Positions 37,266 through 57,172 of a stretch of 64,000 nt of DNA are shown piece after piece. The position numbers were made by a program, and so were the translations under genes. Within the stretch, counting starts at the first letter, position 1. The number at the start of each line of letters is the position of its first letter. Below the pieces are notes generated by a model. That model was not told the DNA's origin, did no database searches, and saw nothing but the letters and a program-made list of their open reading frames with translations. The stretch covers positions 97,759 through 161,758 of the forward strand of contig CAZRGC010000003.1 in the NCBI GenBank assembly GCA_964599625.1, written 5' to 3'. The DNA comes from an uncultured Gammaproteobacteria bacterium. GTDB lineage: Bacteria; Patescibacteriota; Microgenomatia; UBA8517.

Positions 37266-37270
37266 TCAAA

Positions 37271-37933
37271 ATGCTGAAAATAAATTCATACACACTCAAA
37301 GGTGAGAAGAAAGGAGAAATAGTTCTTCCCAAGGAGTTTGATGTCAAACTAAATCTTCCTTTGTTGGCTCAGGCAATTAGAGTTTACGAAGAAAGATCTC
37401 ATGTCGGTCTTAGAAACACAAAAACAAGATCCGAGGTCAACAGAACCACCAAAAAAATTTACAAACAAAAAGGAACAGGTGGGGCCAGACATGGAAGCAG
37501 ACGCGCTAACGTGTTTGTGGGCGGAGGCATAACTTTTGGTCCCAGACCGGAACGAAGAATCTTAACTCTTACTTCGGCTCTTAAGTCTTTGGCAAAAATG
37601 ACAGCCTTTGTTTACAAAGCAAGTGAAAAGTCGCTGATTGCTGTCGAAGGCCTTTCTAAAATTGATAAGACAAAAGTAGCCGGAGAATTTCTCAAAAAGT
37701 TATCCACCGAGCTTAAGGCAAATAGGTTCACTTTTGTAATTGCAGACAAAAACGCCGCTTCAAGAAAGTTCCTTAGAAACTTGGGCAATGCTGTTCCGAT
37801 TTCGTTCAAAGAAGTTAGCGCCTTTGATGTGGCCCGCGGTGGTGTTGTAATAATGGACGCTGATATTTTTGAAAAAGCAGCCGACAAAGCCGTAAAGACT
37901 GTCAAAAAGATAGCTGTTAAGAAGCAAACATAA
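37271..37933 (+). CDS. rplD: 50S ribosomal protein L4
   Basis: QKGTGGARHGSRRANVFVGGGITFGPRP. Confidence 0.95.
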   Translation: MLKINSYTLKGEKKGEIVLPKEFDVKLNLPLLAQAIRVYEERSHVGLRNTKTRSEVNRTTKKIYKQKGTGGARHGSRRANVFVGGGITFGPRPERRILTLTSALKSLAKMTAFVYKASEKSLIAVEGLSKIDKTKVAGEFLKKLSTELKANRFTFVIADKNAASRKFLRNLGNAVPISFKEVSAFDVARGGVVIMDADIFEKAADKAVKTVKKIAVKKQT

Positions 37934-37950
37934 GAAATAAATATATAACT

Positions 37951-38226
37951 ATGATTAAACCAGTATTTACAGAAAAAAGTTTAACGCTTGCCAGACAGGG
38001 TAAGTATTCATTTTGGGTGGACAAAAATGCAACCAAGCCCGCGCTTAAGGCTGCCATTGCAAAAATGTTTGGAGTTCATGTTTTGTCCATTAAAACAATC
38101 ACCATCCCGGGTGAATCCAAAAGAAATGTACGAGGCAAAAAGATAGTTGTTCTCCCAAGTAAGAAGGCGGTTGTAACTCTCAAAAAAGACGAAAAAATAG
38201 ACATTTTTGAAGAAACCAAGAAATAA
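37951..38226 (+). CDS. rplW: 50S ribosomal protein L23
   Basis: 91 aa in the conserved operon position, with IKPVFTEKS...VDKNATK. Confidence 0.9.
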   Translation: MIKPVFTEKSLTLARQGKYSFWVDKNATKPALKAAIAKMFGVHVLSIKTITIPGESKRNVRGKKIVVLPSKKAVVTLKKDEKIDIFEETKK

Positions 38227-38264
38227 AACATAGAATATAGAACATAAAACATAAAAAATAAAAT

Positions 38265-39017
38265 ATGAAAAGACTCAAATCAATATTATCCAAAAAATCA
38301 GGACGTGCAGGGGGAACAGTTGTTGTCAGACACCAAGGTGGACGACACAAAAGATTTTTGAGAGAAATCGATTTTAAGCGTGTTCACAAGGATGTTTGGG
38401 GAGTTGTTCAGGCAGTAGAATACGATCCCAACAGAAACTCAGAAATCGCCCTGGTACTTTACGAAAACGGCAAGAGAGGGTATATTTTGTCTCCTGTCGG
38501 TCTTACGGTTGGGATGAAGGTGATAAGCTCAGAGTCCGCGCCAATAGAGCCCGGGAACTCACTTCCTTTAAAATTGATTCCAGTGGGTGCTCAGGTTCAC
38601 AACATAGAATTAACAAAAGGCAAAGGTGGCCAAATAGTTAAAGGGGCAGGAAGCGCAGCCGTTATTTTTGGACGTGAAGAAGCTTGGATTTTGGTTAAGC
38701 TTCCGTCTGGAGAAATCAGAAGATTTGATCCGGAATGTTATGCCACAGTTGGTCAAGTCGGCAATGTTGATGCCAAAAACGAGATAATGGGGAAAGCGGG
38801 AAGAGTGAGGCATATGGGTGTAAGACCTTCAGTTCGTGGAGTTGCAATGCATCCTAATGCACATCCTCACGGAGGAGGAGAAGGAAGAAGTGGAATTGGT
38901 ATGAAGCACCCCAAGACTTTTTATGGTAGAAGTGCAGTCGGAAAAACAAGGGCTAAGAAAAAATATTCTGATAGACTAATAGTTCAAAGGAAGGGAGGCA
39001 AAGCCCTTCTGGGTTAA
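38265..39017 (+). CDS. rplB: 50S ribosomal protein L2 (short N-terminus)
   Basis: VRHQGGRHKRFLREIDFKR, VEYDPNRNSEIALV, HPHGGGEGRS. The usual N-terminal KPxTPGRR segment is absent. Confidence 0.93.
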   Translation: MKRLKSILSKKSGRAGGTVVVRHQGGRHKRFLREIDFKRVHKDVWGVVQAVEYDPNRNSEIALVLYENGKRGYILSPVGLTVGMKVISSESAPIEPGNSLPLKLIPVGAQVHNIELTKGKGGQIVKGAGSAAVIFGREEAWILVKLPSGEIRRFDPECYATVGQVGNVDAKNEIMGKAGRVRHMGVRPSVRGVAMHPNAHPHGGGEGRSGIGMKHPKTFYGRSAVGKTRAKKKYSDRLIVQRKGGKALLG

Positions 39018-39025
39018 TTTAAATT

Positions 39026-39307
39026 ATGGCAAGAAGTTCAAAAAAGGGTCCGTTTGTAGACCCGATACTAGTCAAAAAGTTGGAAAAAGGAATGGGCACA
39101 AAAGAAAGCCCTATCAAAACCTGGTCCAGAAGATGCCAAATTTCACCGGAATTTGTTGGTAAATATTTTCAGGTTCATAACGGTCGTGTATTTATCGATG
39201 TATTTGTAACAGAAGACATGGTCGGCCATAGGCTTGGTGAGTTTTCACCTACAAGAACATTCAGAGGACACGGAGAGATAGTCAAAAGAACGATGGACAA
39301 GACGTAA
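39026..39307 (+). CDS. rpsS: 30S ribosomal protein S19
   Basis: [11 protein letters not shown] and [16 protein letters not shown]. Confidence 0.96.
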
Positions 39308-39341
39308 ATGTCTTCGTCTGGCGACGTAAAAAAGTAAAACT

Positions 39342-39803
39342 ATGGAAAAAACATACACATCAACTCAAAAATATCTGATTATGAGTCCTAGAAAAATAAG
39401 ACTTGTAACTGAACTTGTAAAAAAGATGAAACCGCTTGATGCGATTGAGAAGTTGCCCTTTGTTCAAAAAAGAGCAGGAGAGGTTGTTGCAAAAGTAATA
39501 AAAAGCGCTTTAGCAAACGCTAGAGTTCAGGGTGCGACCGATACAGATTTGGTTTTTAAAGAGATTCAAGTTGGCGAAGGACCCAGACTCAAAAGAGGTA
39601 GGGCTGCAAGCCGCGGAAGATGGCATCCGTTTAAACACAGAATGTCACACATTAGAGTGGTTTTGGTATCAGGTAAACAAGTAAAGACAGTGGAAGCCGA
39701 AGTGACCAAGAAAGTAGAAGATAAAGAAGTCAAAGCAGAAGTAGTGAAGAAAGAGACGCCGGCAAAAAAAGCCGCAGCAAAGAAAAATGGGACAAAAGGT
39801 TAA
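39342..39803 (+). CDS. rplV: 50S ribosomal protein L22 with Lys/Glu/Val-rich C-terminal extension
   Basis: SPRKIRLVTELV and GEGPRLKRGRAASRGRWHPFKHRMSHIRVVL, followed by a ~45-aa KKVEDKEVKAEVVKKETPAKKAAAKK tail. Confidence 0.92.
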   Translation: MEKTYTSTQKYLIMSPRKIRLVTELVKKMKPLDAIEKLPFVQKRAGEVVAKVIKSALANARVQGATDTDLVFKEIQVGEGPRLKRGRAASRGRWHPFKHRMSHIRVVLVSGKQVKTVEAEVTKKVEDKEVKAEVVKKETPAKKAAAKKNGTKG

Positions 39804-40443
39804 TCCAATCGGTATAAGAATCGGAAGCTACCTTCCTTGGAAATCAAGATGGTTTGCCGACGGTGGTGTTCTGAAGGACTTTTTGGTGGAAGATATCAAA
39901 ATCAGAAAAGGACTCATGGAACGTCTCAAGCTTGCCGGAGTCACAACTGTTGAAATCGAAAGACTTCCCAAAAGCATGGTGATTTCGATAACAGTCAGTA
40001 GGCCAGGAGTTGTAATTGGGCGAGGCGGAACAGGAATCGAAGACGTCAAAAAATTCGTAATGAGCATAATTAACGAGGTTAGAAAGAAAAAAGTTAAAGA
40101 TCTTAAAATCGACATTAGAATCAATGAAGTCAAAAATGCAGAACTTTCGGCACATCTTGTTGCAGGAAGGATTGTGGGAGAGTTGGAACGTAGAATTCCC
40201 CACAGACGTGCAGTTACAAAAGCTCTCGAAAGAGTAATGGCCTCGGGGGCCTTGGGAGCCAAAGTTGTTTTGGCAGGGCGCATAAACGGAGCAGAAATCA
40301 GCAGAGTTGAAAAGTTCCATGTTGGATCTGTTCCCACTCAAACACTTAGAGAAACTGTCGATTATGCACAGACACCGGCATCGCTTAAAAGAGGTTATGT
40401 CGGGGTAAAAGTTTGGATACACAAAAAACAGGAAGGTAATTAA
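39787..40443 (+). CDS. rpsC: 30S ribosomal protein S3
   Basis: MGQKVNPIGIRIG and a KH domain. It overlaps the rplV 3' end. Confidence 0.96.
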   Translation: MGQKVNPIGIRIGSYLPWKSRWFADGGVLKDFLVEDIKIRKGLMERLKLAGVTTVEIERLPKSMVISITVSRPGVVIGRGGTGIEDVKKFVMSIINEVRKKKVKDLKIDIRINEVKNAELSAHLVAGRIVGELERRIPHRRAVTKALERVMASGALGAKVVLAGRINGAEISRVEKFHVGSVPTQTLRETVDYAQTPASLKRGYVGVKVWIHKKQEGN

Positions 40444-40448
40444 CGATT

Positions 40449-40859
40449 ATGATGCAACCAAAGCGAAGAAAGTTTGTAAAAGAGTTTAGGGGAAGACGAC
40501 GCGGTCTCGCTACCCGCGGTGCCAGTATGGCTTTTGGAGAATTTGCACTGAAGGCTCAGGAAGTTTCTTGGATAACATCTGCTCAGATTGAGGCAGCTAG
40601 AAGAAGCATAACCCACAATCTAAAAAAAGGTGGACGTGTTTGGATTAGAATTTTTCCGGACAAGCCCATTACCAGTAGGCCAGCAGGAAAAAGAATGGGT
40701 GGAGGAAAGGGAGATATTTCGACATATGTTGCAGTAGTTAAACCCGGAATGATACTTTTTGAAGTTGCAGGGGCAGCGGAAGATGTGGTTAGGACTGCAT
40801 TCAAAAGAGCATCCGCCAAGCTCCCGATAGATGTCAAGATAGTTACAAGAGAAGACTAA
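40449..40859 (+). CDS. rplP: 50S ribosomal protein L16
   Basis: MQPKRRKF..RGRRRG..FGEFALKA and RMGGGKG. Confidence 0.96.
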   Translation: MMQPKRRKFVKEFRGRRRGLATRGASMAFGEFALKAQEVSWITSAQIEAARRSITHNLKKGGRVWIRIFPDKPITSRPAGKRMGGGKGDISTYVAVVKPGMILFEVAGAAEDVVRTAFKRASAKLPIDVKIVTRED

Positions 40860-40863
40860 GACT

Positions 40864-41091
40864 ATGAAAAGAAAAGAATTTACAGATTTAAAAACAAAAC
40901 AGATAAAAGACCTTTTAAAAATGGTTTCTGCCAAAAGTCTTGAGGCGGGCAAGAAACAAATGGAAGTGTCCGGAGGAAAAGAAAAGAATCTAAGATCGGT
41001 CAAAAATATCCGAAAAGATATTGCCAGAATTTTGACGTTAATCAAAGAAAAGCAGATAATCGAGACTTTGGAGAAAGGAGTGAATAAATAA
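40864..41091 (+). CDS. rpmC: 50S ribosomal protein L29
   Basis: 75 aa, helical, in the conserved position between rplP and rpsQ. Confidence 0.85.
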   Translation: MKRKEFTDLKTKQIKDLLKMVSAKSLEAGKKQMEVSGGKEKNLRSVKNIRKDIARILTLIKEKQIIETLEKGVNK

Positions 41092-41094
41092 TTT

Positions 41095-41340
41095 ATGAAA
41101 ATTTTTAGAGGAAAAGTAATCGGTAAAAAGATGACCAATACTGCGACTGTGGCTGTAGAGCGTGTTATTGTTCACCCTCTTTATCAAAAAAGATTCAGAC
41201 GCGATACAAAATATCAAGTCCACGACGAGATGGATACAAAAGTTGGTGATACTGTCAAATTTGCAGCCAGTAAACCCTATTCAAAGACAAAGAAATGGAA
41301 AATTTTGGAGATAGTTAAGGAGAAAGGGGGAGCCAAATAA
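41095..41340 (+). CDS. rpsQ: 30S ribosomal protein S17
   Basis: GKVIGKKMTNTATVAVERVIVHPLYQKRFRRDTKYQVHD. Confidence 0.95.
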   Translation: MKIFRGKVIGKKMTNTATVAVERVIVHPLYQKRFRRDTKYQVHDEMDTKVGDTVKFAASKPYSKTKKWKILEIVKEKGGAK

Positions 41341-41705
41341 TGGTGCAGTTAAGAACAATGTTGGTTCCTGCAGACAACAGCGGAGCCAAAAGACTCCAGA
41401 TAATTGGAGTTCCTGGAAGAGTTGGTAAAATTGCCACTTTGGGAGATGTTGTTCTTTGTGTAGTCAAAGGCGCGGACCCAACAGGTGTGGTGGCTGATCA
41501 CGAAAAAGTGAAAGTGCTTATCGTACGCACCAAAAAAGAAGTAGGCAGACCAGATGGAAGCTATATCAGATTTGACGATAACGCAGGGGTGGTAATTGAT
41601 AAACAAGGGTTGCCAAGGGGTACCAGAATATTGGGACCGGTTGCCCGCGAGGTTAAAGAGGCAGGGTACAACAAAATTGCATCACTCGCCCGTGAGGTTA
41701 TATAA
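41340..41705 (+). CDS. rplN: 50S ribosomal protein L14
   Basis: MVQLRTMLVPADNSGAK...IRFDDNAGV. Confidence 0.96.
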   Translation: MVQLRTMLVPADNSGAKRLQIIGVPGRVGKIATLGDVVLCVVKGADPTGVVADHEKVKVLIVRTKKEVGRPDGSYIRFDDNAGVVIDKQGLPRGTRILGPVAREVKEAGYNKIASLAREVI

Positions 41706-41720
41706 GCAAACAAAACAAAT

Positions 41721-42035
41721 ATGCTCAAAATTAAACTTGGAGACACAGTCAAAATAACAGCAGGCAAAGACAAAGGCCGCGAAGGGAAGGTTGAAAAAAT
41801 CTACCCAGAGGACTCAAAGGTTGTTGTGCCAGGCGTAAACCTGTACAAAAAACACGTTAAAGGTTTTGGTGACGTTAAGGGTGGAATCTACGAAATTCCC
41901 AGAGCTTTGGGATTTGGAAAAATTGCACTTATATGTCCAAAATGCAAAAAAATAACCAGAGTTGGTTTCAAATTTGCGGGTAAGGAAAAAGTGAGAGTTT
42001 GCCGCAAGTGCGGAAAAGAAATCGACGGTAAATAA
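41721..42035 (+). CDS. rplX: 50S ribosomal protein L24 (Cys4 variant)
   Basis: KOW motif GDTVKITAGKDKGREGKV. The C-terminal part carries CPKC..x18..CRKC. Confidence 0.92.
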   Translation: MLKIKLGDTVKITAGKDKGREGKVEKIYPEDSKVVVPGVNLYKKHVKGFGDVKGGIYEIPRALGFGKIALICPKCKKITRVGFKFAGKEKVRVCRKCGKEIDGK

Positions 42036-42040
42036 ACAAT

Positions 42041-42619
42041 ATGGAAAATAATAAACAAAGATTACAGGTTAAATACGAAAAAGAGGTTAAGCCGGTTTTG
42101 ATGAAAGAGTTTGGCATCAAACACGAACTGGCCACTCCCAAGATTGCCAAAGTGGTTGTTAATATGGGAGTCGGAAAACTCTCCAAGAACCAAGCCCAGA
42201 TGGACGCACTTAAAAAAGATATTGCTACCATGACAGGTCAGGCGCCGTCGGTCAGAAACGCGAAGGTTTCTATTGCGAGCTTCTCGCTCAGGGAAGGACA
42301 GCCTGTAGGTTTGTCAGTGACTCTTAGAGGTGCCTCTATGTACGGTTTTCTGGATAGACTAGTTTCTATAACCTTACCGCGTCTTAGGGACTTTAGAGGA
42401 GTTTCTGGTAAGTCTTTTGACCAGGCAGGCAACTACACCCTTGGTTTTCAGGAACATACGGTTTTTCCGGAAATTGACCCGACCCGGTCTGCTCAGCCTC
42501 ACGGAATGGAAGTAACAGTAGTTGTAACAGGCACCGATCCGTCAGATAAATCAGGCACAAACGTGGTAAAATCCAAAAGACTTTTAGAGCTTATGGGTAT
42601 GCCTTTTGAAAAACCCTAA
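42041..42619 (+). CDS. rplE: 50S ribosomal protein L5
   Basis: PKIAKVVVNMGVG and RDFRGVSGKSFDQAGNYTLGFQEHTVFPEI. Confidence 0.96.
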   Translation: MENNKQRLQVKYEKEVKPVLMKEFGIKHELATPKIAKVVVNMGVGKLSKNQAQMDALKKDIATMTGQAPSVRNAKVSIASFSLREGQPVGLSVTLRGASMYGFLDRLVSITLPRLRDFRGVSGKSFDQAGNYTLGFQEHTVFPEIDPTRSAQPHGMEVTVVVTGTDPSDKSGTNVVKSKRLLELMGMPFEKP

Positions 42620-42655
42620 GGTTTTTGGTTCTAAAGTACAAATAAATATAAACAT

Positions 42656-42841
42656 ATGGCAACAACAGCAAAAGAAGTAAGAGAAACAAAAAAATTAAAG
42701 TACGCAATTAGGTACCGCAATAGGTGCCGCCTTTGCGGAAGAAGCAGAGGTTACCTTAGAAAATATGGTATTTGCAGACTGTGTTTTAGAGAGCATGCCT
42801 TAAGAGGTGAAATTCCAGGTGTCAGAAAGGCAAGTTGGTAA
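42656..42841 (+). CDS. rpsN: 30S ribosomal protein S14, type Z (zinc form)
   Basis: 61 aa with [23 protein letters not shown]. Confidence 0.95.
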
Positions 42842-42853
42842 TTAATAATAACT

Positions 42854-43261
42854 ATGAAAAAAGCAGAAACAATCAAACACGGAACAGTTAACTACGGAGT
42901 AGGAGATTTTCTTATAAAAATCAAAAACTGTTCTATGGCCAAAAACAAAAGCCTGGTAACCAGATATACAAAACACAATATGGCTATCGCAGAAACTCTC
43001 AAGAAACTTGGCTATTTGGACGAAGTCAAAAAAGACGGACTCAACCTCCATCTTTCTCTGACATTCAAAAACAAAAGACCTGTAGTTATGGACCTCAAAC
43101 TTGTTTCCAAACCAGGACTTAGGGTTTACAAGGGAGTAGATGAAATTGAAAGCAAAAAAGGACCTTCCCTTCTTTTGATTTCTACACCTTTGGGAGTAAT
43201 TTCTTCCAAAGAAGCCATCAAAAAGAGAGTTGGCGGAGAAGTAATAGCAGAAATTTGGTAA
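42854..43261 (+). CDS. rpsH: 30S ribosomal protein S8
   Basis: 135 aa in operon position, with a C-terminal GGEVIAEIW. Confidence 0.92.
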   Translation: MKKAETIKHGTVNYGVGDFLIKIKNCSMAKNKSLVTRYTKHNMAIAETLKKLGYLDEVKKDGLNLHLSLTFKNKRPVVMDLKLVSKPGLRVYKGVDEIESKKGPSLLLISTPLGVISSKEAIKKRVGGEVIAEIW

Positions 43262-43265
43262 AAAT

Positions 43266-43814
43266 ATGTCAAAGATAGGAAGACAACCAATTAAAATTGC
43301 CCAAGGAGTAACGGTTGCGGCCGACAAATCAAATGTCAAAGTCACCGGTCCCAAAGGAACGCTTGATCTTGCATTGCCTGCAGGTGTAAGTGTGGAAGTT
43401 AAAGATGGTGAAGCGCTTGTGAATGTCAAAGGCACAGGTAAGTTTTACTCTAGCCTTCACGGAACAATCCGTTCGCGCATCAACAACAATGTAAAAGGTG
43501 TGAGTACGGGTTGGAATAGACAGCTTGAACTTGTGGGTACAGGTTTTAGGGCCGAAGTTTCGGGAAAAACATTGACACTTACTGTAGGATATTCTCACCC
43601 TGTAAAAATCGAGGCACCCGAAGGGATTACGTTCAAGGTGGAAAAATTAATAGTAACCGTTGAGGGTTACGATAGAGTAGTTGTCGGACAAGTGGCTGCA
43701 AATATCAGAGCAGTAAGACCGCCCGAACCATACAAAGGAAAAGGAATTAAATATGTCGACGAGGTTATAAGAAGAAAGCCTGGTAAAGCTGCAGCAAAAA
43801 CAACAGGAGCATAA
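43266..43814 (+). CDS. rplF: 50S ribosomal protein L6
   Basis: MSKIGRQPIKI..V.V.GPKGTL and PEPYKGKGIKY. Confidence 0.95.
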   Translation: MSKIGRQPIKIAQGVTVAADKSNVKVTGPKGTLDLALPAGVSVEVKDGEALVNVKGTGKFYSSLHGTIRSRINNNVKGVSTGWNRQLELVGTGFRAEVSGKTLTLTVGYSHPVKIEAPEGITFKVEKLIVTVEGYDRVVVGQVAANIRAVRPPEPYKGKGIKYVDEVIRRKPGKAAAKTTGA

Positions 43815-43832
43815 TCCCAGCAGTAAAATATT

Positions 43833-44192
43833 ATGAAAACAATACAACTTAAAGCTAAAAGACAAGCAAGAAGAAAAACAAGTGTTAAGTCCAAGATTTT
43901 TGGGACAACCGATAGGCCAAGACTTTCCGTTTTCAGGTCCAACCTGCACATTTACGGACAGTTGGTGGACGATGTTAAAGCTATTACAGTCGCAGCTTTT
44001 TCCGACCTTAAACTCAAAAAATCAGATAAAATGACAAAATCGCAAATTGCAGAAGCGGTTGGCGAGGAACTTGCCAAGCTCGCAGTTGCTAAAAAAGTCA
44101 AAAAAGTAATTTTTGACAGAAACGGATTTATTTATCACGGACGAGTAAAATCACTGGCAGAGGGAGCAAGAAAGGGAGGATTGGAGTTTTAA
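43833..44192 (+). CDS. rplR: 50S ribosomal protein L18
   Basis: [20 protein letters not shown] and [20 protein letters not shown]. Confidence 0.95.
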
Positions 44193-44201
44193 GATATAAA
44201 T

Positions 44202-44708
44202 ATGGCAAATTTTAACCGAACATATGCCGACCAGGCACCAAAAGAATATGAGGAGACAGTTGTTCAAATAAACAGGATCTCCAAAAAGACAAAAGGTGGA
44301 AACACAATGAGATTTTCTGCACTTATTGTGGTGGGCAACAGAAAAGGAAGAGTTGGGGTTGGTATGGCCAAGGCACACGACGTTAGAAACGCAATCCGAA
44401 AATCAATCGAGGCAGCCAAAAGAAATTTGGTGGACGTTCCTCTTACTGGAACAACCATCCCTTACTCAGTAAGCGAAAAGTATTCTGCAGCTAAAATTCT
44501 TTTGAAACCAGCACCCCCCGGATCCGGAATTATTGCAGGCGGACCAATGAGAGTTGTTTTGGAAGCGGCAGGAATCAGAGATGCAGTCGGAAAAATTTTG
44601 GGAACAAAGAATAAAATTTCTAATGTTTATGCGACACTCAAGGCGCTGGAGCAAGTATCACGCCTTGTTGTTATGAAGAAAAATGAGCCAAAAGCAGAAA
44701 CTAAATAA
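44202..44708 (+). CDS. rpsE: 30S ribosomal protein S5
   Basis: VVQINRISKKTKGGNTMRFSALIVVGN..GRVGVGMAKA. Confidence 0.95.
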   Translation: MANFNRTYADQAPKEYEETVVQINRISKKTKGGNTMRFSALIVVGNRKGRVGVGMAKAHDVRNAIRKSIEAAKRNLVDVPLTGTTIPYSVSEKYSAAKILLKPAPPGSGIIAGGPMRVVLEAAGIRDAVGKILGTKNKISNVYATLKALEQVSRLVVMKKNEPKAETK

Positions 44709-44710
44709 CT

Positions 44711-45118
44711 ATGAGCAAATTACCAAAAGTTGTAACAAAGTCAAAAAAGAGAATCGGTAGAGGTTTTGGAACCGGTAAAGGTGGACACACCACAAACCGC
44801 GGACAGAAGGGGCAAAAATCCCGTGGTTCCATTGGAGTTCTTTTCGAAGGAATGAAAGTCAAGAAGTCACTTCTTAAAAGACTTCCATTGCAGCGCGGAA
44901 AAGGAAAGTTCAAAGCCAACGGAAAACCGGTTATTGTTACCCTTACCGACCTGGATATTCTCCCAACCGGTAGTGAAATTACTTTAGATCTTTTGATCAA
45001 AGAGAACTTGGTCGACCCTATTTTAGGCCGAAAATTCGGAGTAAAAGTCTTGGGAGGAGGAAAATCTACCAAGAAATTTACTTTCAAAGTCCCAACTTCC
45101 AAATCTGTAGCCAAATAA
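44711..45118 (+). CDS. rplO: 50S ribosomal protein L15
   Basis: KRIGRGFGTGKGGHTTNRGQKGQKSR. It starts 2 nt after the rpsE stop, so there is no rpmD between them. Confidence 0.94.
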   Translation: MSKLPKVVTKSKKRIGRGFGTGKGGHTTNRGQKGQKSRGSIGVLFEGMKVKKSLLKRLPLQRGKGKFKANGKPVIVTLTDLDILPTGSEITLDLLIKENLVDPILGRKFGVKVLGGGKSTKKFTFKVPTSKSVAK

Positions 45119-45122
45119 ATAT

Positions 45123-45599
45123 ATGACAGAAAGTCCAACACCTGTTGGAGAAGAAGCAGAAAAACTACAAAAAACATCACTTTTAGTGATGTATTCACGC
45201 CAAGATATGGCAGATACAGCCCTTGAGGTAATAAAAGAACTTAGGGAAGCAGGTCTTAATGTCATCGATATAAACGATAAGATTGCAGATGGCTCGTGGG
45301 TGGGTGAGTCGGATAAAATATTGGAAAATACCCCAGCAGTTCTTGTTATTCCATCAAAATCCATAAAAGAAGATGGTTTGGTTAAGGACGCAGTTTACCG
45401 TGCCGACATGCTAAGGGTAGAAAAAAGAAAGAGAATCGTTCCAATATTTTTTCAGGCTAATGCAAATGTTTCGATAGGAGGCCTTGGCAGCCTTGCCGGA
45501 ATAAATTGGGACGGTGAGACAGAAGGGATTCAAAATTTTGATAAGACTGCAGCTTTCGGCCACCTCAAAACTTTTGTCGCCCAAAATACTAATTCATAA
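45123..45599 (+). CDS. TIR-like domain protein (tentative)
   Basis: SLLVMYSRQDMADTALEVIKELREAGLNVIDINDKIADGSW..AVLVIPSKSI..RIVPIFF follows the bacterial TIR_2 layout (hSYSxxD, G..W, hhhhS, hhPhhh). The conserved catalytic Glu is not evident. Confidence 0.4.
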   Translation: MTESPTPVGEEAEKLQKTSLLVMYSRQDMADTALEVIKELREAGLNVIDINDKIADGSWVGESDKILENTPAVLVIPSKSIKEDGLVKDAVYRADMLRVEKRKRIVPIFFQANANVSIGGLGSLAGINWDGETEGIQNFDKTAAFGHLKTFVAQNTNS

Positions 45600-45601
45600 A
45601 C

Positions 45602-46030
45602 ATGGAAACAATTAAACCTAACGGGTTTTTGACAAGCTTCGAGTTTGAGGGATTAAAACTTCCTGTGGAATACGTGAGAACAGATCAAGTTTGTGAGGGT
45701 GTAACTTGCGACGTTTACAAATTTTGGGGAGACAAAAAGAAGGACTTGGCGATAATAACAATACAACCTGACGCCAAAACACCACCCCAAAAAGTTTTGT
45801 CGGGAGAAAAAACAATCGAAGGATATATTTCGGGATCGGGTGTATTTACAGTGAAAAAGGACGACGGGGGTGAAGAAAGAATATTGGTAGAAGATAAGCC
45901 CACAGAGTACTTTTCAATTCAAGTAAACGTAGGGGACACAATGCAATGGAAAGCTTCGGAAGATTCTATTCTTACTGTTTTTGAAGTTTGCTACCCCCCA
46001 TACGAAGACGGCAGGTTTCAAAATCTTTAG
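45602..46030 (+). CDS. cupin-fold protein (tentative)
   Basis: 142 aa, beta-rich. GYISGSGVFTV...VNVGDTMQW...LTVFEVCYPP resembles the two cupin motifs. Confidence 0.4.
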   Translation: METIKPNGFLTSFEFEGLKLPVEYVRTDQVCEGVTCDVYKFWGDKKKDLAIITIQPDAKTPPQKVLSGEKTIEGYISGSGVFTVKKDDGGEERILVEDKPTEYFSIQVNVGDTMQWKASEDSILTVFEVCYPPYEDGRFQNL

Positions 46031-46045
46031 TGTTATACTTCCAAT

Positions 46046-46489
46046 ATGTCCCGCGATAGATTCAGACTTCTTGCAGCGTGTTACTTATTGCCAATAAAGG
46101 GGAAGAAAGTTCTTTTGTCCCGCCGTTTTAACACTGGCTGGAAGGATGGTTGGTATTCCTTGATTGCAGGGCATTTGGATGGCAACGAATCTGTAAGCGA
46201 CTCAATGATTCGTGAAGCGAAAGAGGAGTCTGGTATTGAAATTGCCAAAAAAGACTTGGTTCCTTTAACCTCCGTTCACCACAAAACAGAAGACTCAGAA
46301 TATGTGGACTTTTTCTTCGCAGTAAAAAAGTGGAAAGGTGAACCGCAAATCAAGGAGCCCAACAAGTGTGACGATATGTCCTGGTTTCCAATAGACAAAC
46401 TTCCGGAAAAATTACTTCCACACGTTAAGCAAATAATTCAAAACCTGGACTCCAATGTTCCTTTTTTTGAACACGGATGGAACAAATAA
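46046..46489 (+). CDS. NUDIX hydrolase
   Basis: Complete Nudix box GHLDGNESVSDSMIREAKEESGI (Gx5Ex7REx2EExGU). Confidence 0.85.
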   Translation: MSRDRFRLLAACYLLPIKGKKVLLSRRFNTGWKDGWYSLIAGHLDGNESVSDSMIREAKEESGIEIAKKDLVPLTSVHHKTEDSEYVDFFFAVKKWKGEPQIKEPNKCDDMSWFPIDKLPEKLLPHVKQIIQNLDSNVPFFEHGWNK

Positions 46490-46504
46490 CTGCTAAACTA
46501 TTTT

Positions 46505-47476
46505 GTGGCTCAAAAAGAAGACGACTCCTACCAAAAATATCTTGAAGACAAACACTTGGCATTTGCAACGCCCGAAAGTCTGGTATCGTCTATGGTAAAA
46601 AAGGCAACGGGATCAGAACCCTTTTCTGTCGAAAAGTTGATTCAGGGTGAAGTGAACGAGGTTTATGATGTGGAGGCTGGTGGTCAAAATGTAATAGTAA
46701 GAATTTCCCGACAAGGACCGGAAAATTTTGAAACCGAAGAAACTGTAATACGCCTCGCTTTGCAAGCAGGTGTACCCGCTCCCAAAGTTCTTCTTTTGGA
46801 ATCTGCCTCAACCGAAACCGAAGAATTGACCTTTTGTATAGAAGAAAAGATTGAAGGAAAGCCATTGAAAGAATTACTAAAAACTCTGGACGCAGAAACT
46901 CTCAAGGCAATTCTGATTCAGTCGGGCGAGATATTATCCCGTATCCATTCATTGGAAACGGACAGATTTGGGCCCTTGGATAGGCAGGTCTTTTATCCTT
47001 CATGGACAGAATATTTATTCAGGAAGGAAGAAAATAAACGTGAGATAATTGAGTATGGCTCTAAAGTGGGACTCCTGCCCGGTGTTATAGATAAAGCCTT
47101 TTCTATACAAAGGAAAAACTCAGGAATTTTGGAAATACAAATCCCCTATATTCTGCACGGCGATTTTAGTCCCAAACACATTCTCACGAATGGAAAAACA
47201 GTCACTGGAATAATAGATTTTGAAGACGCCAAAGGAGGCGATCCGGTGAGAGATATTGCTTGGATGAACTTTTTTTATGGCGATTCGGTAAATCTTGAGT
47301 GGTTTTTAGAAGGATACGGAAGGGAAAAAACAGGAATGGACTTTGATATAAAAATGAGACTTTTGAAAGTTAACTTGGGACTGGACCTGTTGGATTATTA
47401 CGGATCAGAAGGTAATATTTCAGGACTTAAATACTCGAAACGTAAATTGGAGGAAGAGATGGAATTTTTCAAATGA
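46505..47476 (+). CDS. APH/choline-kinase-family phosphotransferase (GTG start)
   Basis: Kinase-like N-lobe (VYDVEAGGQNVIVRI), catalytic loop ILHGDFSPKHIL, and metal-binding IIDFEDA. Confidence 0.75.
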   Translation: MAQKEDDSYQKYLEDKHLAFATPESLVSSMVKKATGSEPFSVEKLIQGEVNEVYDVEAGGQNVIVRISRQGPENFETEETVIRLALQAGVPAPKVLLLESASTETEELTFCIEEKIEGKPLKELLKTLDAETLKAILIQSGEILSRIHSLETDRFGPLDRQVFYPSWTEYLFRKEENKREIIEYGSKVGLLPGVIDKAFSIQRKNSGILEIQIPYILHGDFSPKHILTNGKTVTGIIDFEDAKGGDPVRDIAWMNFFYGDSVNLEWFLEGYGREKTGMDFDIKMRLLKVNLGLDLLDYYGSEGNISGLKYSKRKLEEEMEFFK

Positions 47477-47483
47477 CCCGACA

Positions 47484-48065
47484 ATGAATTCAAACACAAT
47501 AGTAATTTTGGGAACCCTGATTGGTGCAATTGGCTCGATCTTTTATCTTGTCGACGTTGTTAAGGGAAAAATAAAACCCAATCGGGTTTCTTTTATTCTT
47601 TGGTCACTCCCACCATTGATATCTGCATACGCAAATATTAAAAGTGGCGGTGGAATTGAATCTTTAATGACTTTTAGTGTTGGTTTTTTTCCACTGCTTA
47701 TATTTTTGGCAACTTTTCTCAACAAAAAATCCGTTTGGAAACTTACCAAATTTGATTTTGTTTGCGGCGCACTTTCACTTTTGGGATTCCTGCTTTGGCA
47801 GGTAACAAAAGAAGGATATTTGGCAATAACTTTTAGTATAGTTTCCGATTTTTTGGCTGGAATTCCCACCATAACAAAAACTTACAAACACCCAGAAACG
47901 GAACTGGCTTGGCCCTGGTTGATGCCGGTCTTGGGAGAAATTCTTACACTTTCCACACTTGGGGATATTACTTATCTCAACTCAGGTTTCATGATTTACG
48001 TAACTTTGTATAACACAGTCATTTTTCTTTTGGCGCAGTATAAAATCGGAAAGATATGGAAATAA
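47484..48065 (+). CDS. polytopic membrane protein, unknown function
   Basis: 193 aa with about six hydrophobic segments. Confidence 0.55.
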   Translation: MNSNTIVILGTLIGAIGSIFYLVDVVKGKIKPNRVSFILWSLPPLISAYANIKSGGGIESLMTFSVGFFPLLIFLATFLNKKSVWKLTKFDFVCGALSLLGFLLWQVTKEGYLAITFSIVSDFLAGIPTITKTYKHPETELAWPWLMPVLGEILTLSTLGDITYLNSGFMIYVTLYNTVIFLLAQYKIGKIWK

Positions 48066-48562
48066 TTAAACTACCTGTTTCAGAGTGGAAAAGTTATAAA
48101 GCAATAAGGCTTCGAGCTCTCAAGGAAGACCCTCAGGCATTTGGAGCCTCATACGACGATGCGGTCAAATTTGACGAGTCCGAATGGAGACGCAGGCTTG
48201 AAAATGCCGAAAATTCGGACAGAAGTTGGTTATGGTTTGCACAAGAAAACCAGAAAATTGTAGGCCTTATTGGGGCATATATGGAAAAAGGTGCAACAAA
48301 TGAGGCAACTATAGTTTCTGTTTTTGTTCCCAAGGAAGAAAGAGGGAAAGGAATATCGAGCCTTTTGATGGATAAGATGATATCCGAACTTTCAGCTAAA
48401 CCATATCTCAAAAAAATTAATTTGACTGTGAACAAAGACCAAGTAGCGGCCGTAAATCTTTATACAAAGTTTGGTTTCGTAAAAGTCGGTGAGCAAAATT
48501 TTAAAATGGGAAACGGTCAGAAGGCTGTGGAATTTGTTATGGAAAGACAAATTAGCACTTAA
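48056..48562 (+). CDS. GNAT family N-acetyltransferase
   Basis: Motif A VFVPKEERGKGISSLLM, and a C-terminal NLYTKFGF. Confidence 0.8.
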   Translation: MEIIKLPVSEWKSYKAIRLRALKEDPQAFGASYDDAVKFDESEWRRRLENAENSDRSWLWFAQENQKIVGLIGAYMEKGATNEATIVSVFVPKEERGKGISSLLMDKMISELSAKPYLKKINLTVNKDQVAAVNLYTKFGFVKVGEQNFKMGNGQKAVEFVMERQIST

Positions 48563-48565
48563 GGT

Positions 48566-48595
48566 CTGTCATTGATAACTTAGTTGCGATATAAT
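48566..48595 (+). promoter_or_regulatory. possible promoter upstream of secY
   Basis: CTGTCA (48566-48571), an 18-nt spacer, then TATAAT (48590-48595). The -35 is weak. Confidence 0.3.
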
Positions 48596-48606
48596 TCAAC
48601 TTCGGT

Positions 48607-49890
48607 ATGTTTGAACAAATTTTGAATTTCTTCAAGAAAGCTGTAACCACACCTTCTATTAGGAAGAAGCTTCTGGTTACCGCGGTTATCCTTGTTGTAT
48701 TTCGTTTGGCAGGACATATCCCGGCCGCAGGAATAGATCGCAATACACTCACCGCACTCTTTTTGGGAAGCCCTCTTCTTTCGCTTTTGGATGTGTTTTC
48801 CGGAGGAACTCTTGCAAACTTTTCTATTTTGGCCTTAGGGCTTAACCCTTACATCAATGCATCCATTATTTTGCAGCTTTTGGGTTATGTAGTTCCATCG
48901 TTGGAAGCCTTGCAAAAAGAGGGTGAGTACGGCCAGGAGAAAATAAATCAGTACACAAGGCTTTTGACAGTGCCTCTTGCGGCTCTCCAGGCGTTTGGTA
49001 TGTACGCACTCCTTAAGGGGCAAAATGTAATTTCCAATCTTGCTCCTTTGGAACTTTTGGCTTTGGTGATTACGATGACAGCCGGAACTGTTTTCTCGGT
49101 TTGGTTGGGAGAGCTGATTAGCGAGTATGGATTTAAAAATGGAGTTTCCCTGCTAATTTTTACAGGAATAGTAGCAAGACTTCCTGTTGTTTTGGGACAG
49201 TCGGCCAGTGTTGTACAGTCGCAGGATATTCTGAAAGTAATTCTCTTCCTGGTTGTAGCAGCTTTGGTTGTGGGAATGATTATTTTCATAAGTGAAGCTT
49301 CCCGCAAAATCCCAATACACTATGCAAAAAGACGCACCGACACAGGTTTGGGGGCAACTTCCTATTTACCACTAAGACTCAATCAAGCAGGTGTGATTCC
49401 TATCATATTCGCGGTTTCATTGGTTTTGATACCTTCGCTTATGGGTCAGTTTTTGGCCAACATTCCAAATGCTGCTGTTGCGAATGCTGCCAGATTCATA
49501 AGTACTGCATTTAATCCCCAGTCTGTTGTCTATAACCTTACATATTTTGTTTTAGTGTTTGGTTTCACTTATTTTTATACAGCGGTTATTTTCAATCCGG
49601 ATAAAATTTCCGAAGATTTACAAAAAGGTGGAGGTTTTATTCCGGGAATCAGACCCGGAAAAGAAACATCCAAATATTTGTCTTTCGTTTTGTCTCGTTT
49701 GACAGTGGTTGGAGGAGTGTTTTTGGGTTTGGTTGCTGTCATGCCTTCTTTCTTTCAAAATTCGATTGGTGCCAGTAATTTAGCAATTGGAGGAACTGGG
49801 GTGTTGATTGTTGTTTCTGTGGCTTTGGAAATTGTCAGAGAAATGGAAGGTGAGTTGGTAATGGGTAAGTATGAAGGTTTTCTAAGATGA
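48607..49890 (+). CDS. secY: preprotein translocase subunit SecY
   Basis: 427 aa, 10-TM pattern, with [16 protein letters not shown] and [13 protein letters not shown]. Confidence 0.96.
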
Positions 49891-55118: not shown

Positions 55119-55523
55119 ATGGCAAAGAAACTTGATTACACATACGCAATTGGTCGCAGAAAAGAATCCCAGGCAAGGGTGAGGGTATACCGTGGCAAAG
55201 GAGAAAACACTGTTAACGGAATGCCGGCATCAAAATATTTCGAGGGTGAACTTTTCCAAAAAATGCTTGCAAAGCCGATGGGTGCAACCGAAACATCCGA
55301 CAAGCATTATTATTCCGGACGCGTTGTGGGCGGCGGGAAAATGGGACAGCTTTCCTCGTTGATCCTGGCACTTTCCAGGGCTTTGGTAAAGATTTCTCCC
55401 GAAAAAAACAGAATAGTTCTTAGAAAATTAAATCTTCTCACCCGTGATTCCAGAATCAGACAACGAAGGATGGTTGGAATGGGTGGAAAAGCCCGCAGAA
55501 AGAAACAATCTCCAAAACGTTAA
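55119..55523 (+). CDS. rpsI: 30S ribosomal protein S9
   Basis: GRRKESQARVRV and a C-terminal KARRKKQSPKR. Confidence 0.95.
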   Translation: MAKKLDYTYAIGRRKESQARVRVYRGKGENTVNGMPASKYFEGELFQKMLAKPMGATETSDKHYYSGRVVGGGKMGQLSSLILALSRALVKISPEKNRIVLRKLNLLTRDSRIRQRRMVGMGGKARRKKQSPKR

Positions 55524-55567
55524 CGGTTTTCTTTTTCCATAGCTTCACTTTGTAGTACAATCTTTCT

Positions 55568-55939
55568 ATGGTAAGTGATCGTATTTTGGCAGAGGCTAAA
55601 AAATATATACCTGAGTGTGACTACATCGTAGATCTTTTTGACCTAATGTTTATTTGGGTTAGCGACAAAGCACTAAAGGAGACAGGTTTTACCAAGGATG
55701 AGATTTTGAGGATGCGAAACCTTGATCTTATAGCCGAAGGAATGTATTCCGAAGTTGACTTGCGCAAGCAACTTATTGAAAGAATTACCAAAAAACAGGG
55801 CGAAAACACTTACATTCTCAAAACCGCCAAGGGTCTTTTGAATGTGCGTTATCAATATCAGGCATTTCAATTTGATGGCGGCTGGTACATAACGGGAAAG
55901 ATTTTGGAAACCTCCCCCGCCCCAAATCCTCAGTCTTAA
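55568..55939 (+). CDS. small PAS-like domain protein (tentative)
   Basis: 123 aa. FIWVSDKALKETGFTKDEILRMRNLDLI resembles the PAS N-cap/core text. Confidence 0.3.
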   Translation: MVSDRILAEAKKYIPECDYIVDLFDLMFIWVSDKALKETGFTKDEILRMRNLDLIAEGMYSEVDLRKQLIERITKKQGENTYILKTAKGLLNVRYQYQAFQFDGGWYITGKILETSPAPNPQS

Positions 55940-55954
55940 GTTATAATTTTTACA

Positions 55955-56998
55955 ATGTCAGAACCACTTTATGATCCGACGGTTTTGGAAAAATATGAAG
56001 TGCCGGAAGCTTTCCGTTATTCGTTGGACGAAGAAGAGGTGACCAACGAAGAAATTTCGGCTGTCAGGCGTTTGGTAAGGGAAAATAAAATAGAGCAAAA
56101 AGGAGCATTTGCAGCAGGTATTAAATACGCGAGGCAAGAGATAATAGCGCTGGAGAATGATCTGGGTCTGGTTCAGAAAGATGAAAGGTCGATGCAAGTA
56201 GCTGTCTTACCCGACGCAGTATTTGAAAAGGCATACTTTGATCTTACCCGTCAAGAAGCCGGAGACAGTGGTGGCGGTTATGCAAACGCACTGGGAAGTG
56301 TTGTATTAAGAGCAAGTACCGACCCTGCATATATAAAATCTTCAATGGTTTACCACGAGTTTGTACATAAGTTTATAGATAAGCATATACAGGTTTTTTC
56401 CAAGGTAAGACGCCCAAGTGGCAGAATTGCCCATGATTATGTAGATAGAAGATCGGGTCTATCGGTGGAAAATGTAACCAAAGAAAGCTCGGCAAAAGGG
56501 ACAAAACCCCGCGGCGAACTTTTGAATGAGCTGGGAAACTACATGGAACAGCATAGGTTTATTTTAAATATATTGGATAAGCCCGAATTTGCTGAAGAAA
56601 AACAGAGGCGCGAGAAACTTCTCAGATCGATGGGTTTTGGAGAATCGGGAGGGTTTTGGATAGCAAATGTCAAAAAGCAGGATGGGAGTACATTGCAGAT
56701 AAACCTTGATAGAGACAGTATTCATATTGACGAAAACGGGGATTTTAATCCCGCAACCCTGTTTTTTTATATGCAACTTGCAACGGATTTGGGAAAGGCA
56801 TGTGACCCACAAAACGATGGGGCGGCTTTCAGGAAGCTTCTTTTGGATTGTAAAGTTGATCCCTCAAAACAAAACGAACTCAGAAAGATGGTGGATATGG
56901 GAATGGGAGAGGGTTTTTACACCAGATTAAAGTCGGCGGGTTACCAATCGGACGATGAACTTTTAGACCTCATTGTAGAGGTGCAATCCAAACTATAG
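55955..56998 (+). CDS. hypothetical protein with HExxH motif (possible zinc metallopeptidase)
   Basis: 347 aa with MVYHEFVHKF, and a downstream Glu-rich segment ELLNELGNYMEQ about 50 aa later (gluzincin-like spacing). Confidence 0.35.
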   Translation: MSEPLYDPTVLEKYEVPEAFRYSLDEEEVTNEEISAVRRLVRENKIEQKGAFAAGIKYARQEIIALENDLGLVQKDERSMQVAVLPDAVFEKAYFDLTRQEAGDSGGGYANALGSVVLRASTDPAYIKSSMVYHEFVHKFIDKHIQVFSKVRRPSGRIAHDYVDRRSGLSVENVTKESSAKGTKPRGELLNELGNYMEQHRFILNILDKPEFAEEKQRREKLLRSMGFGESGGFWIANVKKQDGSTLQINLDRDSIHIDENGDFNPATLFFYMQLATDLGKACDPQNDGAAFRKLLLDCKVDPSKQNELRKMVDMGMGEGFYTRLKSAGYQSDDELLDLIVEVQSKL

Positions 56999-57030
56999 TG
57001 AAACCTATTGTGTGGTAAAATAGGCTCCTA

Positions 57031-57172
57031 CGGGGTGTAGTTTTAGCCAGCAGGCGAAATACACACTTTAGTCTTAGTTACAAACGGGGTGTAGTTTACC
57101 CGGTAAGCTTCGATGGGTCCCTTCCCATCTCAGGTGCTTTGCACCAAGCTTGGCCAGTAATCTCCACCCCTC
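57031..57172 (+). repeat. two upstream partial copies of the tRNA-Pro 5' end; the second is embedded in a nested stem structure
   Basis: CGGGGTGTAGTTT occurs at 57031, 57085 and 57181. In 57086-57170 the pairings are GGGGTG/CACCCC, GTTTAC/GTAATC (one mismatch), AAGCTT/AAGCTT, GATGGG/CCCATC and GGTGC/GCACC. Confidence 0.6.

Follow-up and report, generated by a model that had tools for sequence, protein, structure and literature searches.

Accessory genes between rplO and secY in a clade of Woesebacteria: a probable turnover hotspot within the ribosomal-protein super-operon

The window analysed here is a stretch of 64,000 nucleotides (nt) of contig CAZRGC010000003.1 (assembly GCA_964599625.1, positions 97,759 to 161,758), which belongs to a metagenome-assembled Woesebacteria genome from the Candidate Phyla Radiation (CPR). 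It contains the S10-spc-alpha string of ribosomal-protein genes, in which six accessory genes (45123-48562) separate rplO from secY. We consider it probable that these six genes are a lineage-specific accessory tail of the ribosomal-protein unit, located in a clade-specific turnover hotspot at the rplO–secY junction. The S10-spc-alpha string is a textbook example of a gene order frozen by co-expression and serves as a synteny and phylogeny anchor for uncultivated bacteria. Its spc operon has the canonical order rplN...rplO-secY-[adk-map]-rpmJ in E. coli, B. subtilis and most bacteria. The window keeps this order up to rplO and from secY onwards, but rplO and secY lie 3.5 kb apart and secY is preceded by a promoter-like element of its own. 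The gene rpmD (L30) is missing, as in other CPR, and the genes for S5 and L15 are separated by 2 nt.

The rplO–secY Junction Across Woesebacteria

The distance between rplO and secY was measured in SecY-anchored loci (numbered L001 onwards) of 80 species-representative genomes, all Woesebacteria/Microgenomates (CPR); Woesebacteria are tiny bacteria of a groundwater type. Among the 24 closest genomes, the window included, 18 hold 0.5-9.2 kb between the two genes, and the gap between L15 and SecY exceeds 300 nt in 17 of 23 close loci versus 2 of 51 distant loci. In genomes with SecY at most 71% identical, rplO abuts or overlaps secY (−20 to ~105 nt) with two exceptions (L028 and L068), and ~50 other Woesebacteria have rplO adjoining or overlapping secY. 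The nine junctions among adjacent ribosomal-protein genes on both sides were never expanded. The L5-S8, InfA-S13 and Map-InfA intervals exceed 300 nt in at most three loci each, and the Adk-Map interval does so in 3 of 50 distant loci. The variability of the rplO–secY interval is both junction-specific and clade-specific. In a neighbour-joining phylogeny of 11 concatenated proteins, all expanded close genomes fall within one clade of 21 genomes (bootstrap 100/100), 18 of which carry an insert of 0.5-9.2 kb. This clade is nested in a clade of 24 genomes (100/100) whose other members are L017, L022 and L027, with rplO–secY distances of −11, −4 and 94 nt. In the literature we found no description of an rplO–secY hotspot in CPR.

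The initial annotation of the window described the array as an older, ameliorated insertion. Its age and amelioration hold, since the genes are host-like in composition and the array is common to lineages with SecY proteins 89% identical. The survey does not support one insertion: sister genomes hold entirely different genes at this junction, often on the opposite strand, and the array is one state of a turnover that extends over the clade.

A weaker, secondary breakpoint of the same gene string is the SecY-Adk interval: more than 300 nt separate the two genes at 4 of 26 close loci and at 6 of 53 distant ones, with a maximum of 5.2 kb. At L028, the gap of 313 nt contains a single open reading frame (ORF) of 83 amino acids (aa) and the pre-secY element described below. 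The distant Woesebacteria locus L068 (7953-9948) has an insert of 2.1 kb with a C5 DNA methyltransferase-like gene (GGFPCQ motif) and a convergent partner; judging from the PCQ motif, recognised by eye, it looks like a restriction-modification pair.

Gene Content and Turnover of the Interval

Insert ORFs were delimited with a simple longest-ORF heuristic, so that the family counts are approximate. The 111 insert ORFs comprise 22 recurring families and 48 singletons, in an order that differs per genome; 75 lie on the + strand and 33 on the − strand (~30% antisense). The most frequent families are NUDIX (seven), GNAT (five), staphylococcal-nuclease-like proteins (five) and a TPR membrane protein (four). 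Cupin, APH, seven-transmembrane (7-TM), Trp-repressor-like, DUF5680 and MazG-like families occur three times each. TIR-like proteins, cyclases, Erm/KsgA-type methyltransferases, sigma-70 region 4 proteins, NTP_transf_6 and cytidine deaminases occur twice, and serine hydrolases at least twice. Confirmed singletons include HAD, GDSL, HD, DHH, Ham1, nucleoside deoxyribosyltransferase-like, peptidase S51, DUF1801 and RMKL-type methyltransferase proteins; HEPN and PIN matches were weak and sub-threshold, and inspection by eye alone suggested a peptide deformylase and an EamA-type transporter. The 19 inserts examined yielded no integrase, transposase or recombinase.

The window and L001 share five of the six genes; the next sisters, L004-L006, share none of them at rplO|secY. 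L011 has only a NUDIX gene at the junction and its sister L003 has nothing there. Individual members of the array also occur apart from each other: the cupin gene has a different partner in L015, and the APH gene and the 7-TM gene stand in other contexts in L020 and L019, respectively. Some gene orders are nevertheless shared by distant members of the clade, namely families C16-C2-C0 in L002 and L019 and C14-C0-C3 in L007 and L008. Alongside gain and rearrangement, genes have probably also been lost differentially from a larger island in the ancestor.

Accessory genes are also found at a second position. In the window, a second variable interval (55524-59042) lies between a 134-aa gene, presumed to be rpsI (55119-55523), and a conserved 362-aa gene (59043-60131). 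It measures 3.5 kb in the window versus 170-470 nt in L011 and L022. In L017, L004 and L005 an orthologue of the NUDIX gene, 46-61% identical to that of the window, follows rpsI. It thus seems that accessory genes gather where ribosomal-protein operons end and that they shift from one such site to another. The initial annotation had considered both that relatives might carry these genes elsewhere and that the junction might be an assembly join; the NUDIX gene does occur elsewhere in relatives, but the join is not artefactual (see section “Alternative Explanations”).

Two observations concern single hotspot genes. An Erm-like rRNA adenine methyltransferase, adjoining a Trp-repressor-like gene, is encoded at rplO|secY in L006 (8389-9234, −) and L021 (8709-9524, −). 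It scores 191 bits with the Erm 23S model (cutoff 212), higher than its score of 154 with KsgA (cutoff 171), and judged by its sequence it may serve to protect the ribosome. The second observation concerns the cytidine deaminase of the hotspot: a blasticidin-type deaminase was considered and rejected, as the cutoff for housekeeping cdd was passed.

Organisation and Conservation of the Six-Gene Array

On its left the array is anchored by rplO (L15; 44711-45118, +), which is 85% identical to that of L001 and 99% to those of L082 and L085. It is followed on the + strand by genes for a TIR-fold protein of 158 aa (45123-45599), a cupin-fold protein of 142 aa (45602-46030), a Nudix hydrolase of 147 aa (46046-46489), an APH-fold small-molecule kinase of 323 aa with a GTG start (46505-47476), a 7-TM membrane protein of 193 aa (47484-48065) and a GNAT acetyltransferase of 168 aa (48056-48562). 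The right anchor is secY (48607-49890, +), identified by Pfam. The six ORFs are intact and fill 45123-48562, with successive spacings from rplO to secY of 4, 2, 15, 15, 7, −10 (overlap of the 7-TM and GNAT genes) and 44 nt. The ORF table thereby confirms the tight, same-strand packing reported in the initial annotation. The families it had named from sequence motifs (TIR-like, cupin-like, Nudix, APH-type, polytopic membrane protein and GNAT) also stand: assignment with hidden Markov models placed four of the six proteins by Pfam (TIR_2, NUDIX, APH and GNAT), predicted structures placed the cupin-fold and 7-TM proteins, and none of the calls was contradicted. The same applies to its view of host-like composition and of starts without a Shine–Dalgarno sequence, as G+C content, G+C at third codon positions (GC3) and codon usage of the array genes are inside the host range (z = 0.1-1.6) and a strong Shine–Dalgarno sequence lies upstream of only ~10% of the genes in the window. 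The last gene before secY is a GNAT gene in the window, L001 and L008.

The array recurs in independent data. L081, a Logan assembly, is identical to the window over L24...L15-TIR-cupin-NUDIX-APH, including the junction on the rplO side. Six further sequencing runs (L082-L087) retain array order and spacing as far as the contigs extend, and the contig of the sister strain L082 covers the entire array through into secY with both junctions. In L001, a different species with an 89% identical SecY, a HAD hydrolase takes the place of NUDIX in an otherwise unchanged order. Purifying selection acts on each of the six genes: the ratio of nonsynonymous to synonymous substitution rates (dN/dS) is 0.04-0.22 for the TIR-like gene and 0.05-0.16 for the other five.

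A second, smaller mosaic patch, in addition to the TIR-like gene discussed below, covers the 3' end of NUDIX and the 5' end of APH (46290-46700). There, the window shares only 63-78% nt identity with L082/L085, versus 90-100% in the surrounding array. This suggests frequent short recombination tracts within the array.

A repeat search of 44500-48800 yielded short, chance-level matches only. Rfam gave zero matches in the array region at E<=1 and in the whole window at the gathering threshold, and hence neither a riboswitch nor a ribosomal-protein leader of a known kind at rplO|secY. PHROGs and PADLOC made no phage-family or defence-system assignment in the window region; the only significant PADLOC match in the array is that of the Nudix protein to the candidate family PDC-S07 (1.8e-9).

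A Promoter-Like Element Upstream of secY and Probable Transcription of the Array

Upstream of secY in the window lies the promoter-like element CTGTCA-18-TATAAT (48566-48595, +), of which the TATAAT ends 11 nt before the secY ATG. Across the clade the consensus is CTGTnTTTAGGATC-agatTTGgGaTATAAT (short form CTGTnTTTAGGATC..TTGGGATATAAT), in which TATAAT is invariant and stands 9-11 nt upstream of the ATG. The element is present in all genomes of the expanded clade, once per locus and solely at that position. It also occurs at short gaps of 64-104 nt (L003, L023, L025 and L027) and in L028, and it is absent from L017 and L022, where rplO overlaps secY. TATAAT appears to be informative as a promoter mark in this genome: 10 of the 14 + strand copies in the window lie within the ~12% of intergenic sequence, and textbook TTGACA-17/18-TATAAT promoters stand upstream of rpoB, tuf and rpsJ. 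The pre-secY element is thus probably a dedicated, near-leaderless secY promoter, which would mean that the operon is effectively split at this point.

The sequence features further upstream fit with the array being transcribed from the ribosomal-protein genes. The reference sigma-70-type promoter TTGACA-18-TATAAT (12/12 matches; 35732-35761, +) precedes rpsJ, and a strong terminator hairpin with an 11-bp stem, six GC pairs and a T-run (36316-36341, +) follows it. The sequence GATATAAT at 36386-36393 (+) is the likely start of an L3-to-L15 transcription unit with the six genes as its tail. From 36388 to 48590 the + strand contains no exact TATAAT and no strong terminator, and that of the array itself has two weak terminator-like hairpins and zero exact TATAAT, in line with the earlier remark that no internal terminator was obvious. 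Since the gap between rplO and the TIR-like gene is only 4 nt, the other genes are 2-15 nt apart or overlap and internal signals are lacking, the array is likely a read-through tail of the L3-to-L15 unit. These features agree with the co-transcription with ribosomal genes that the initial annotation had proposed. Because ~30% of the hotspot genes are antisense clade-wide, co-transcription would be a trait of the arrangement in the lineage of the window and not of the hotspot.

In the rpsJ–L3 region a second terminator-like hairpin (36466-36484) overlaps the predicted start of L3, and no Rfam leader match was obtained there. S10 appears to be transcriptionally separated from L3, or attenuator-type control operates between them.

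How the Hotspot May Have Arisen

Taken together, we propose the following course of events. The clade would have acquired the conserved promoter-like element before secY, which would have freed secY from read-through from rplO: with a dedicated promoter, this read-through is unneeded and selection for adjacency is relaxed. The junction would then have become a permissive shelf where small accessory genes can be gained, lost, swapped and inverted without mobile-element machinery, most likely by homologous recombination via the highly conserved flanks together with deletion. In the lineage of the window this would have resulted in six co-oriented, near-abutting genes, which most likely owe their expression to read-through from the promoter of the ribosomal-protein genes. 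The Nudix protein, APH-fold kinase, GNAT protein and the cupin without conserved histidine would function as house-cleaning or small-molecule enzymes and the 7-TM protein as a small-solute transporter-like protein, next to a non-catalytic TIR-fold protein.

Several points weigh against this course of events. The element is present in L027 but not in L022, with which L027 groups; ‘promoter first, then accretion’ thus holds only with secondary losses or recombination, and the neighbour-joining tree sets a limit on how firmly such groupings can be read. Distant genomes are partly collinear, which would also suit one large ancestral island in differential decay instead of ongoing gain, and the heuristic ORF calls affect the family counts on which the picture of turnover is built. 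Conservation of the six-gene order under purifying selection over four allele lineages, together with a NUDIX-cupin-MazG neighbourhood in Saccharibacteria, leaves room for some functional coupling, at least between cupin and Nudix. Lastly, both the secY promoter and the read-through are deduced from sequence features.

The TIR-Like Gene Is a Hypervariable Cassette

Over the genes from S8 to L15 the window, L082 and L085 share 92-100% nt identity. L082 and L085 are 93-100% identical per 60-nt window over more than 2 kb and 100% across S8 to S5. From ~45150 to ~45590 nt identity drops to 0.47-0.72, and it recovers in the cupin gene. The TIR-like proteins of the three strains are 73%, 54% and 55% identical to each other, and the synonymous divergence (dS) of the gene is saturated (3-4) versus 0.1-0.4 in the flanks. 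The L085 allele resembles that of another species, L001 (64%), more than it does the alleles of near-clonal strains. Conservation is confined to the first ~27 nt, which encode MTESPTPVG. The gene forms a sharply bounded hypervariable cassette, in which ancient functional alleles would be exchanged as a unit by recombination; such a pattern is usually the product of balancing or negative-frequency-dependent selection. Relaxed constraint or pseudogenisation was rejected, since the ORFs are intact in all alleles, dN/dS is low and 61 alignment columns are invariant. A diversity-generating retroelement was rejected as well, since the differences extend over the entire ORF and affect all base types, and neither a reverse transcriptase nor a template repeat lies close to it.

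The sole conserved stretch of the gene contains a CCAAC-N4-GTTGG hairpin (45135-45148, codons 5-9). Its stem is invariant and its loop differs in L001; there is no covariation and the fold z-score is only −1.8. The hairpin could be a recombination boundary, an RNA signal or a coincidence.

The protein matches Pfam TIR_2 (6e-9; 36.9 bits vs cutoff 28), its homologues carry the precomputed PF13676 assignment, and the landmarks beta-A (LxxYS), xxD and (V)VPI(F) align. In an alignment of 20 sequences, however, the canonical TIR_2 motif VxxExxYA is VKD[A/V]xY[R/Q/K]A in the family of the window, so that the column of the catalytic glutamate in (W/V)xxExxxA is alanine or valine in all four alleles. 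The closest Zn-ribbon-TIR relatives lack this glutamate too, and an alignment with SARM1 gave no glutamate either. NADase activity is therefore unlikely from the sequence, and the NADase or defence reading of the TIR-like protein finds no support. No ThsA-, SAVED-, STING- or CBASS-type partner of the gene was found, and the PADLOC SAVED_TIR match was insignificant (0.017). The family is nearly an orphan: a word-seeded search gave four clusters, an exhaustive search of 1.84 billion sequences gave three representatives at E<=1e-10, and no homologues were found in JGI metagenome contigs or IMG/VR.

It is conceivable, if rather doubtful, that the TIR-fold gene is a new strain-specificity determinant, a non-catalytic protein made proportionally to the ribosomal proteins, the ancient, recombining alleles of which are kept by negative-frequency-dependent selection. 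The rplO|secY shelf would then be a device to plug adaptive genes, including Erm-like and APH-like ones, into ribosomal-protein expression in promoter-poor, streamlined CPR genomes. Possible roles of the TIR-fold protein are those of an immunity or decoy protein, or of a recognition factor in episymbiont–host or phage conflict.

Predicted Properties of the Other Five Proteins

The cupin ORF has no Pfam cupin family match. Its AlphaFold2 model (predicted local distance difference test, pLDDT, 93.3) is an all-beta, double-stranded beta-helix, and a Foldseek search of the PDB gave 483 matches at E<=1e-3, of which the top 50 are all cupins with a probability of 1.0. PDB sequence searches with the TIR-like and cupin proteins were uninformative. 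Among 39 homologues there is no invariant histidine and the metal-binding motifs GX5HXHX3,4EX6G and GX5PXGX2HX3N are not present; Y39, T60, Q63, E73, Q115, W116, E128 and R138 are the invariant residues. The family is mostly restricted to CPR, and no homologues were found in IMG/VR.

The Nudix protein (Pfam NUDIX, 65.9 bits vs cutoff 21.1, 5e-18) has an intact Nudix box (G-HLDGN-E-SVSDSMI-RE-AK-EE-S-G-I) and its closest solved relatives are NUDX1/MutT-type enzymes; it scores below the MutT equivalog cutoffs (PRK10776, 42.7 vs 148; TIGR00586, 31.1 vs 97.9). The APH-fold kinase (Pfam APH, 81.7 bits vs cutoff 23.2, 9e-23) contains the catalytic HGD in LHGDFSPKH and the Mg-binding aspartate in IIDFEDA, and the asparagine of HxDxxxxN is replaced by histidine. 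Its closest solved relative is hygromycin-B 4-O-kinase (PDB, 4e-14, near full length), and it is under all curated resistance cutoffs, the best being APH(4)-Ia with 39.5 vs 725 bits. The GNAT protein (Pfam Acetyltransf_1, 62.8 bits vs cutoff 20.7, 5e-17) has the acetyl-CoA motif as RGKGIS and falls below the RimI equivalog cutoff (TIGR01575, 51.9 vs 86.4).

The 7-TM protein is modelled by AlphaFold2 with seven long helices (pLDDT 91.8). The top PDB folds are the KDEL receptor, cystinosin and SWEET, with template-modelling (TM) scores of 0.52-0.61 and probabilities of 0.9-1.0, yet E >= 0.01; Pfam PQ-loop and MtN3 gave no match. The family, for which Pfam has no model, counts more than 670 proteins with ~60% identity across distant phyla (CPR, Anaerolineales and Bacteroidales) and 66 invariant positions (homologues P0042-P0161). 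It is an uncharacterised, strongly conserved, transporter-like family.

Conserved linkage to other array genes is not seen for distant cupin and 7-TM homologues, except for one Saccharibacteria neighbourhood (L088:3243-5399; GCA_034520885.1), where a distant cupin homologue adjoins NUDIX and MazG-like genes. NUDIX, cupin and MazG-like genes are families that also recur in the Woesebacteria hotspot, and this neighbourhood may point to a functional link between the three in nucleotide house-cleaning. Independent re-assortment of the six genes across genomes makes a single pathway unlikely, and they are best seen as independent accessory genes, mostly for nucleotide house-cleaning or small-molecule modification.

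Alternative Explanations

Since the window stems from a metagenome-assembled genome and the junction is otherwise highly conserved in bacteria, a chimeric join of a ribosomal contig to unrelated DNA, or a binning artefact, had to be considered. It is effectively refuted: the left junction is found again in L081, the L082 contig of the sister strain extends over both junctions, and L084-L087 and L001, from independent samples and assemblers, have the same order as far as their contigs extend. Insertion of a mobile element or integron-like cassette array into the operon would account for the variable content and the small, often co-oriented genes at a fixed chromosomal site. It is very improbable, however, because integrases, transposases and recombinases were not found in the 19 inserts examined, intergenic gaps of 2-15 nt are too short for attC sites, flanking and internal repeats are not beyond chance and the composition is host-like. 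Integrons and miniature inverted-repeat transposable elements (MITEs) had both been tried as candidates and were rejected on the chance-level repeats in 44500-48800. A third possibility is a single coherent nucleotide or antibiotic module, inserted once long ago and expressed with ribosome synthesis, for example as protection against ribosome-targeting antibiotics; a nucleotide- or antibiotic-related function had also been suggested in the initial annotation. We regard this as unlikely, even though order and spacing are kept in four allele lineages under purifying selection, the kinase has hygromycin-B 4-O-kinase as its closest solved relative, the pool of sister hotspot genes includes the Erm-like 23S methyltransferase, NTP_transf_6 and further GNATs and APHs, and a NUDIX–cupin neighbourhood recurs in Saccharibacteria. 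The genes re-assort independently (HAD stands in for NUDIX in L001), L004-L006 have none of them at the junction, and distant cupin and 7-TM homologues are unlinked to APH, GNAT and TIR. Moreover, the APH, GNAT and Nudix proteins score far under all curated cutoffs for equivalogs and resistance families, the cytidine deaminase of the hotspot is a normal housekeeping cdd and the TIR-like protein has no catalytic glutamate, which speaks against the suggested function.

We give still less weight to a conflict or defence locus built around the hypervariable TIR-like gene, with a strain-specific role in phage, host or kin interaction and neighbours that process nucleotide signals. The gene itself behaves as such a locus might: its cassette is sharply bounded, with saturated dS amid flanks that are 97-100% identical, the trees of alleles and strains are incongruent and the allele pattern is as expected under negative-frequency-dependent selection. 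The other five genes are, however, not hypervariable. At the junction in other genomes, HEPN- and PIN-like genes and an apparent restriction-modification pair (by eye, PCQ motif) occur, and the Nudix protein matches PDC-S07; against this, PADLOC recognised no system, no viral homologues of the TIR-like gene were found in IMG/VR, and the absence of the catalytic glutamate and of known partners described above does not fit a TIR-based defence. An accessory tail within a clade-specific turnover hotspot is hence the reading that we prefer for the six genes.

Comparison With Known Systems and Implications

Chromosomal hotspots of gene gain and loss that are flanked by core genes are reportedly present in many bacterial species. 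The rplO|secY interval resembles them in its fixed site between two core genes, in content that varies with the same families recurring in different combinations and in turnover that plausibly occurs via homologous recombination in the flanks; the same core flanks enclose differing accessory content among relatives in this one interval. It differs in being located within the S10-spc-alpha super-operon, as a rule the gene string with the highest synteny in bacteria. Furthermore, the inserts consist of very small, host-like house-cleaning enzymes without mobile-element genes, in contrast to islands, prophages or defence systems, and a conserved promoter-like element upstream of secY goes together with the hotspot. 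Mobile elements or their remnants, which are frequent but not obligatory in turnover hotspots, were not detected at rplO|secY. Turnover hotspots as such are already known; unusual here are the site in the ribosomal super-operon, the absence of mobile-element marks and the coupling to a promoter-like element. In M. tuberculosis several unrelated metabolic genes presumably also lie between rplO (Rv0723) and secY (Rv0732), which would set a precedent for the super-operon breaking at this boundary; to our knowledge, that content is genus-stable, it is not described as a fast-turnover hotspot and it includes no hypervariable cassette.

The locus is neither an integron nor a defence island, and it is no Thoeris-like system or recognisable cluster of resistance genes either. 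Integron cassette arrays likewise consist of short, mostly co-oriented, promoterless-looking genes behind a strong promoter with content that varies among relatives, but the array and the hotspot have no integrase, attC or attI and 30% of the hotspot genes are antisense. Unlike anti-phage defence islands, the array of the window contains no PADLOC-recognised system. With TIR NADases (Thoeris ThsB, AbTir and SARM1-type) the window protein shares the TIR_2 match and the TIR landmarks, but its family is nearly orphan and lacks both the catalytic glutamate and a partner effector or sensor. As this protein shows, NADase-based defence cannot be deduced from a TIR annotation alone.

In these genomes a whole clade has opened one link of the S10-spc-alpha string, apparently alongside the appearance of a dedicated secY promoter. 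As a fast-turnover accessory slot without a mobile element, the junction offers a testable example of how regulatory rewiring could make an evolutionary landing pad out of a constrained operon junction in streamlined CPR genomes. Tools for binning or curation in which rplO–secY adjacency counts as a quality check would flag these genomes in error, and the TIR-like cassette could serve as a natural marker of strain-level balancing selection in uncultured organisms.

Additional Observations in the Window

ARAGORN called a tRNA-Pro (GGG) at 57181-57253, overlapping the end of a − strand ORF (57233-57874). Rfam found no tRNA anywhere in the window at the gathering threshold, and the call may be a divergent tRNA or a false positive. 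The 1-kb bin 34001-35000 has a G+C content of 0.51 vs ~0.41 for the remaining window; it lies within or around a 382-aa ORF (33867-35015) between tuf and rpsJ, where Rfam reported no RNA.

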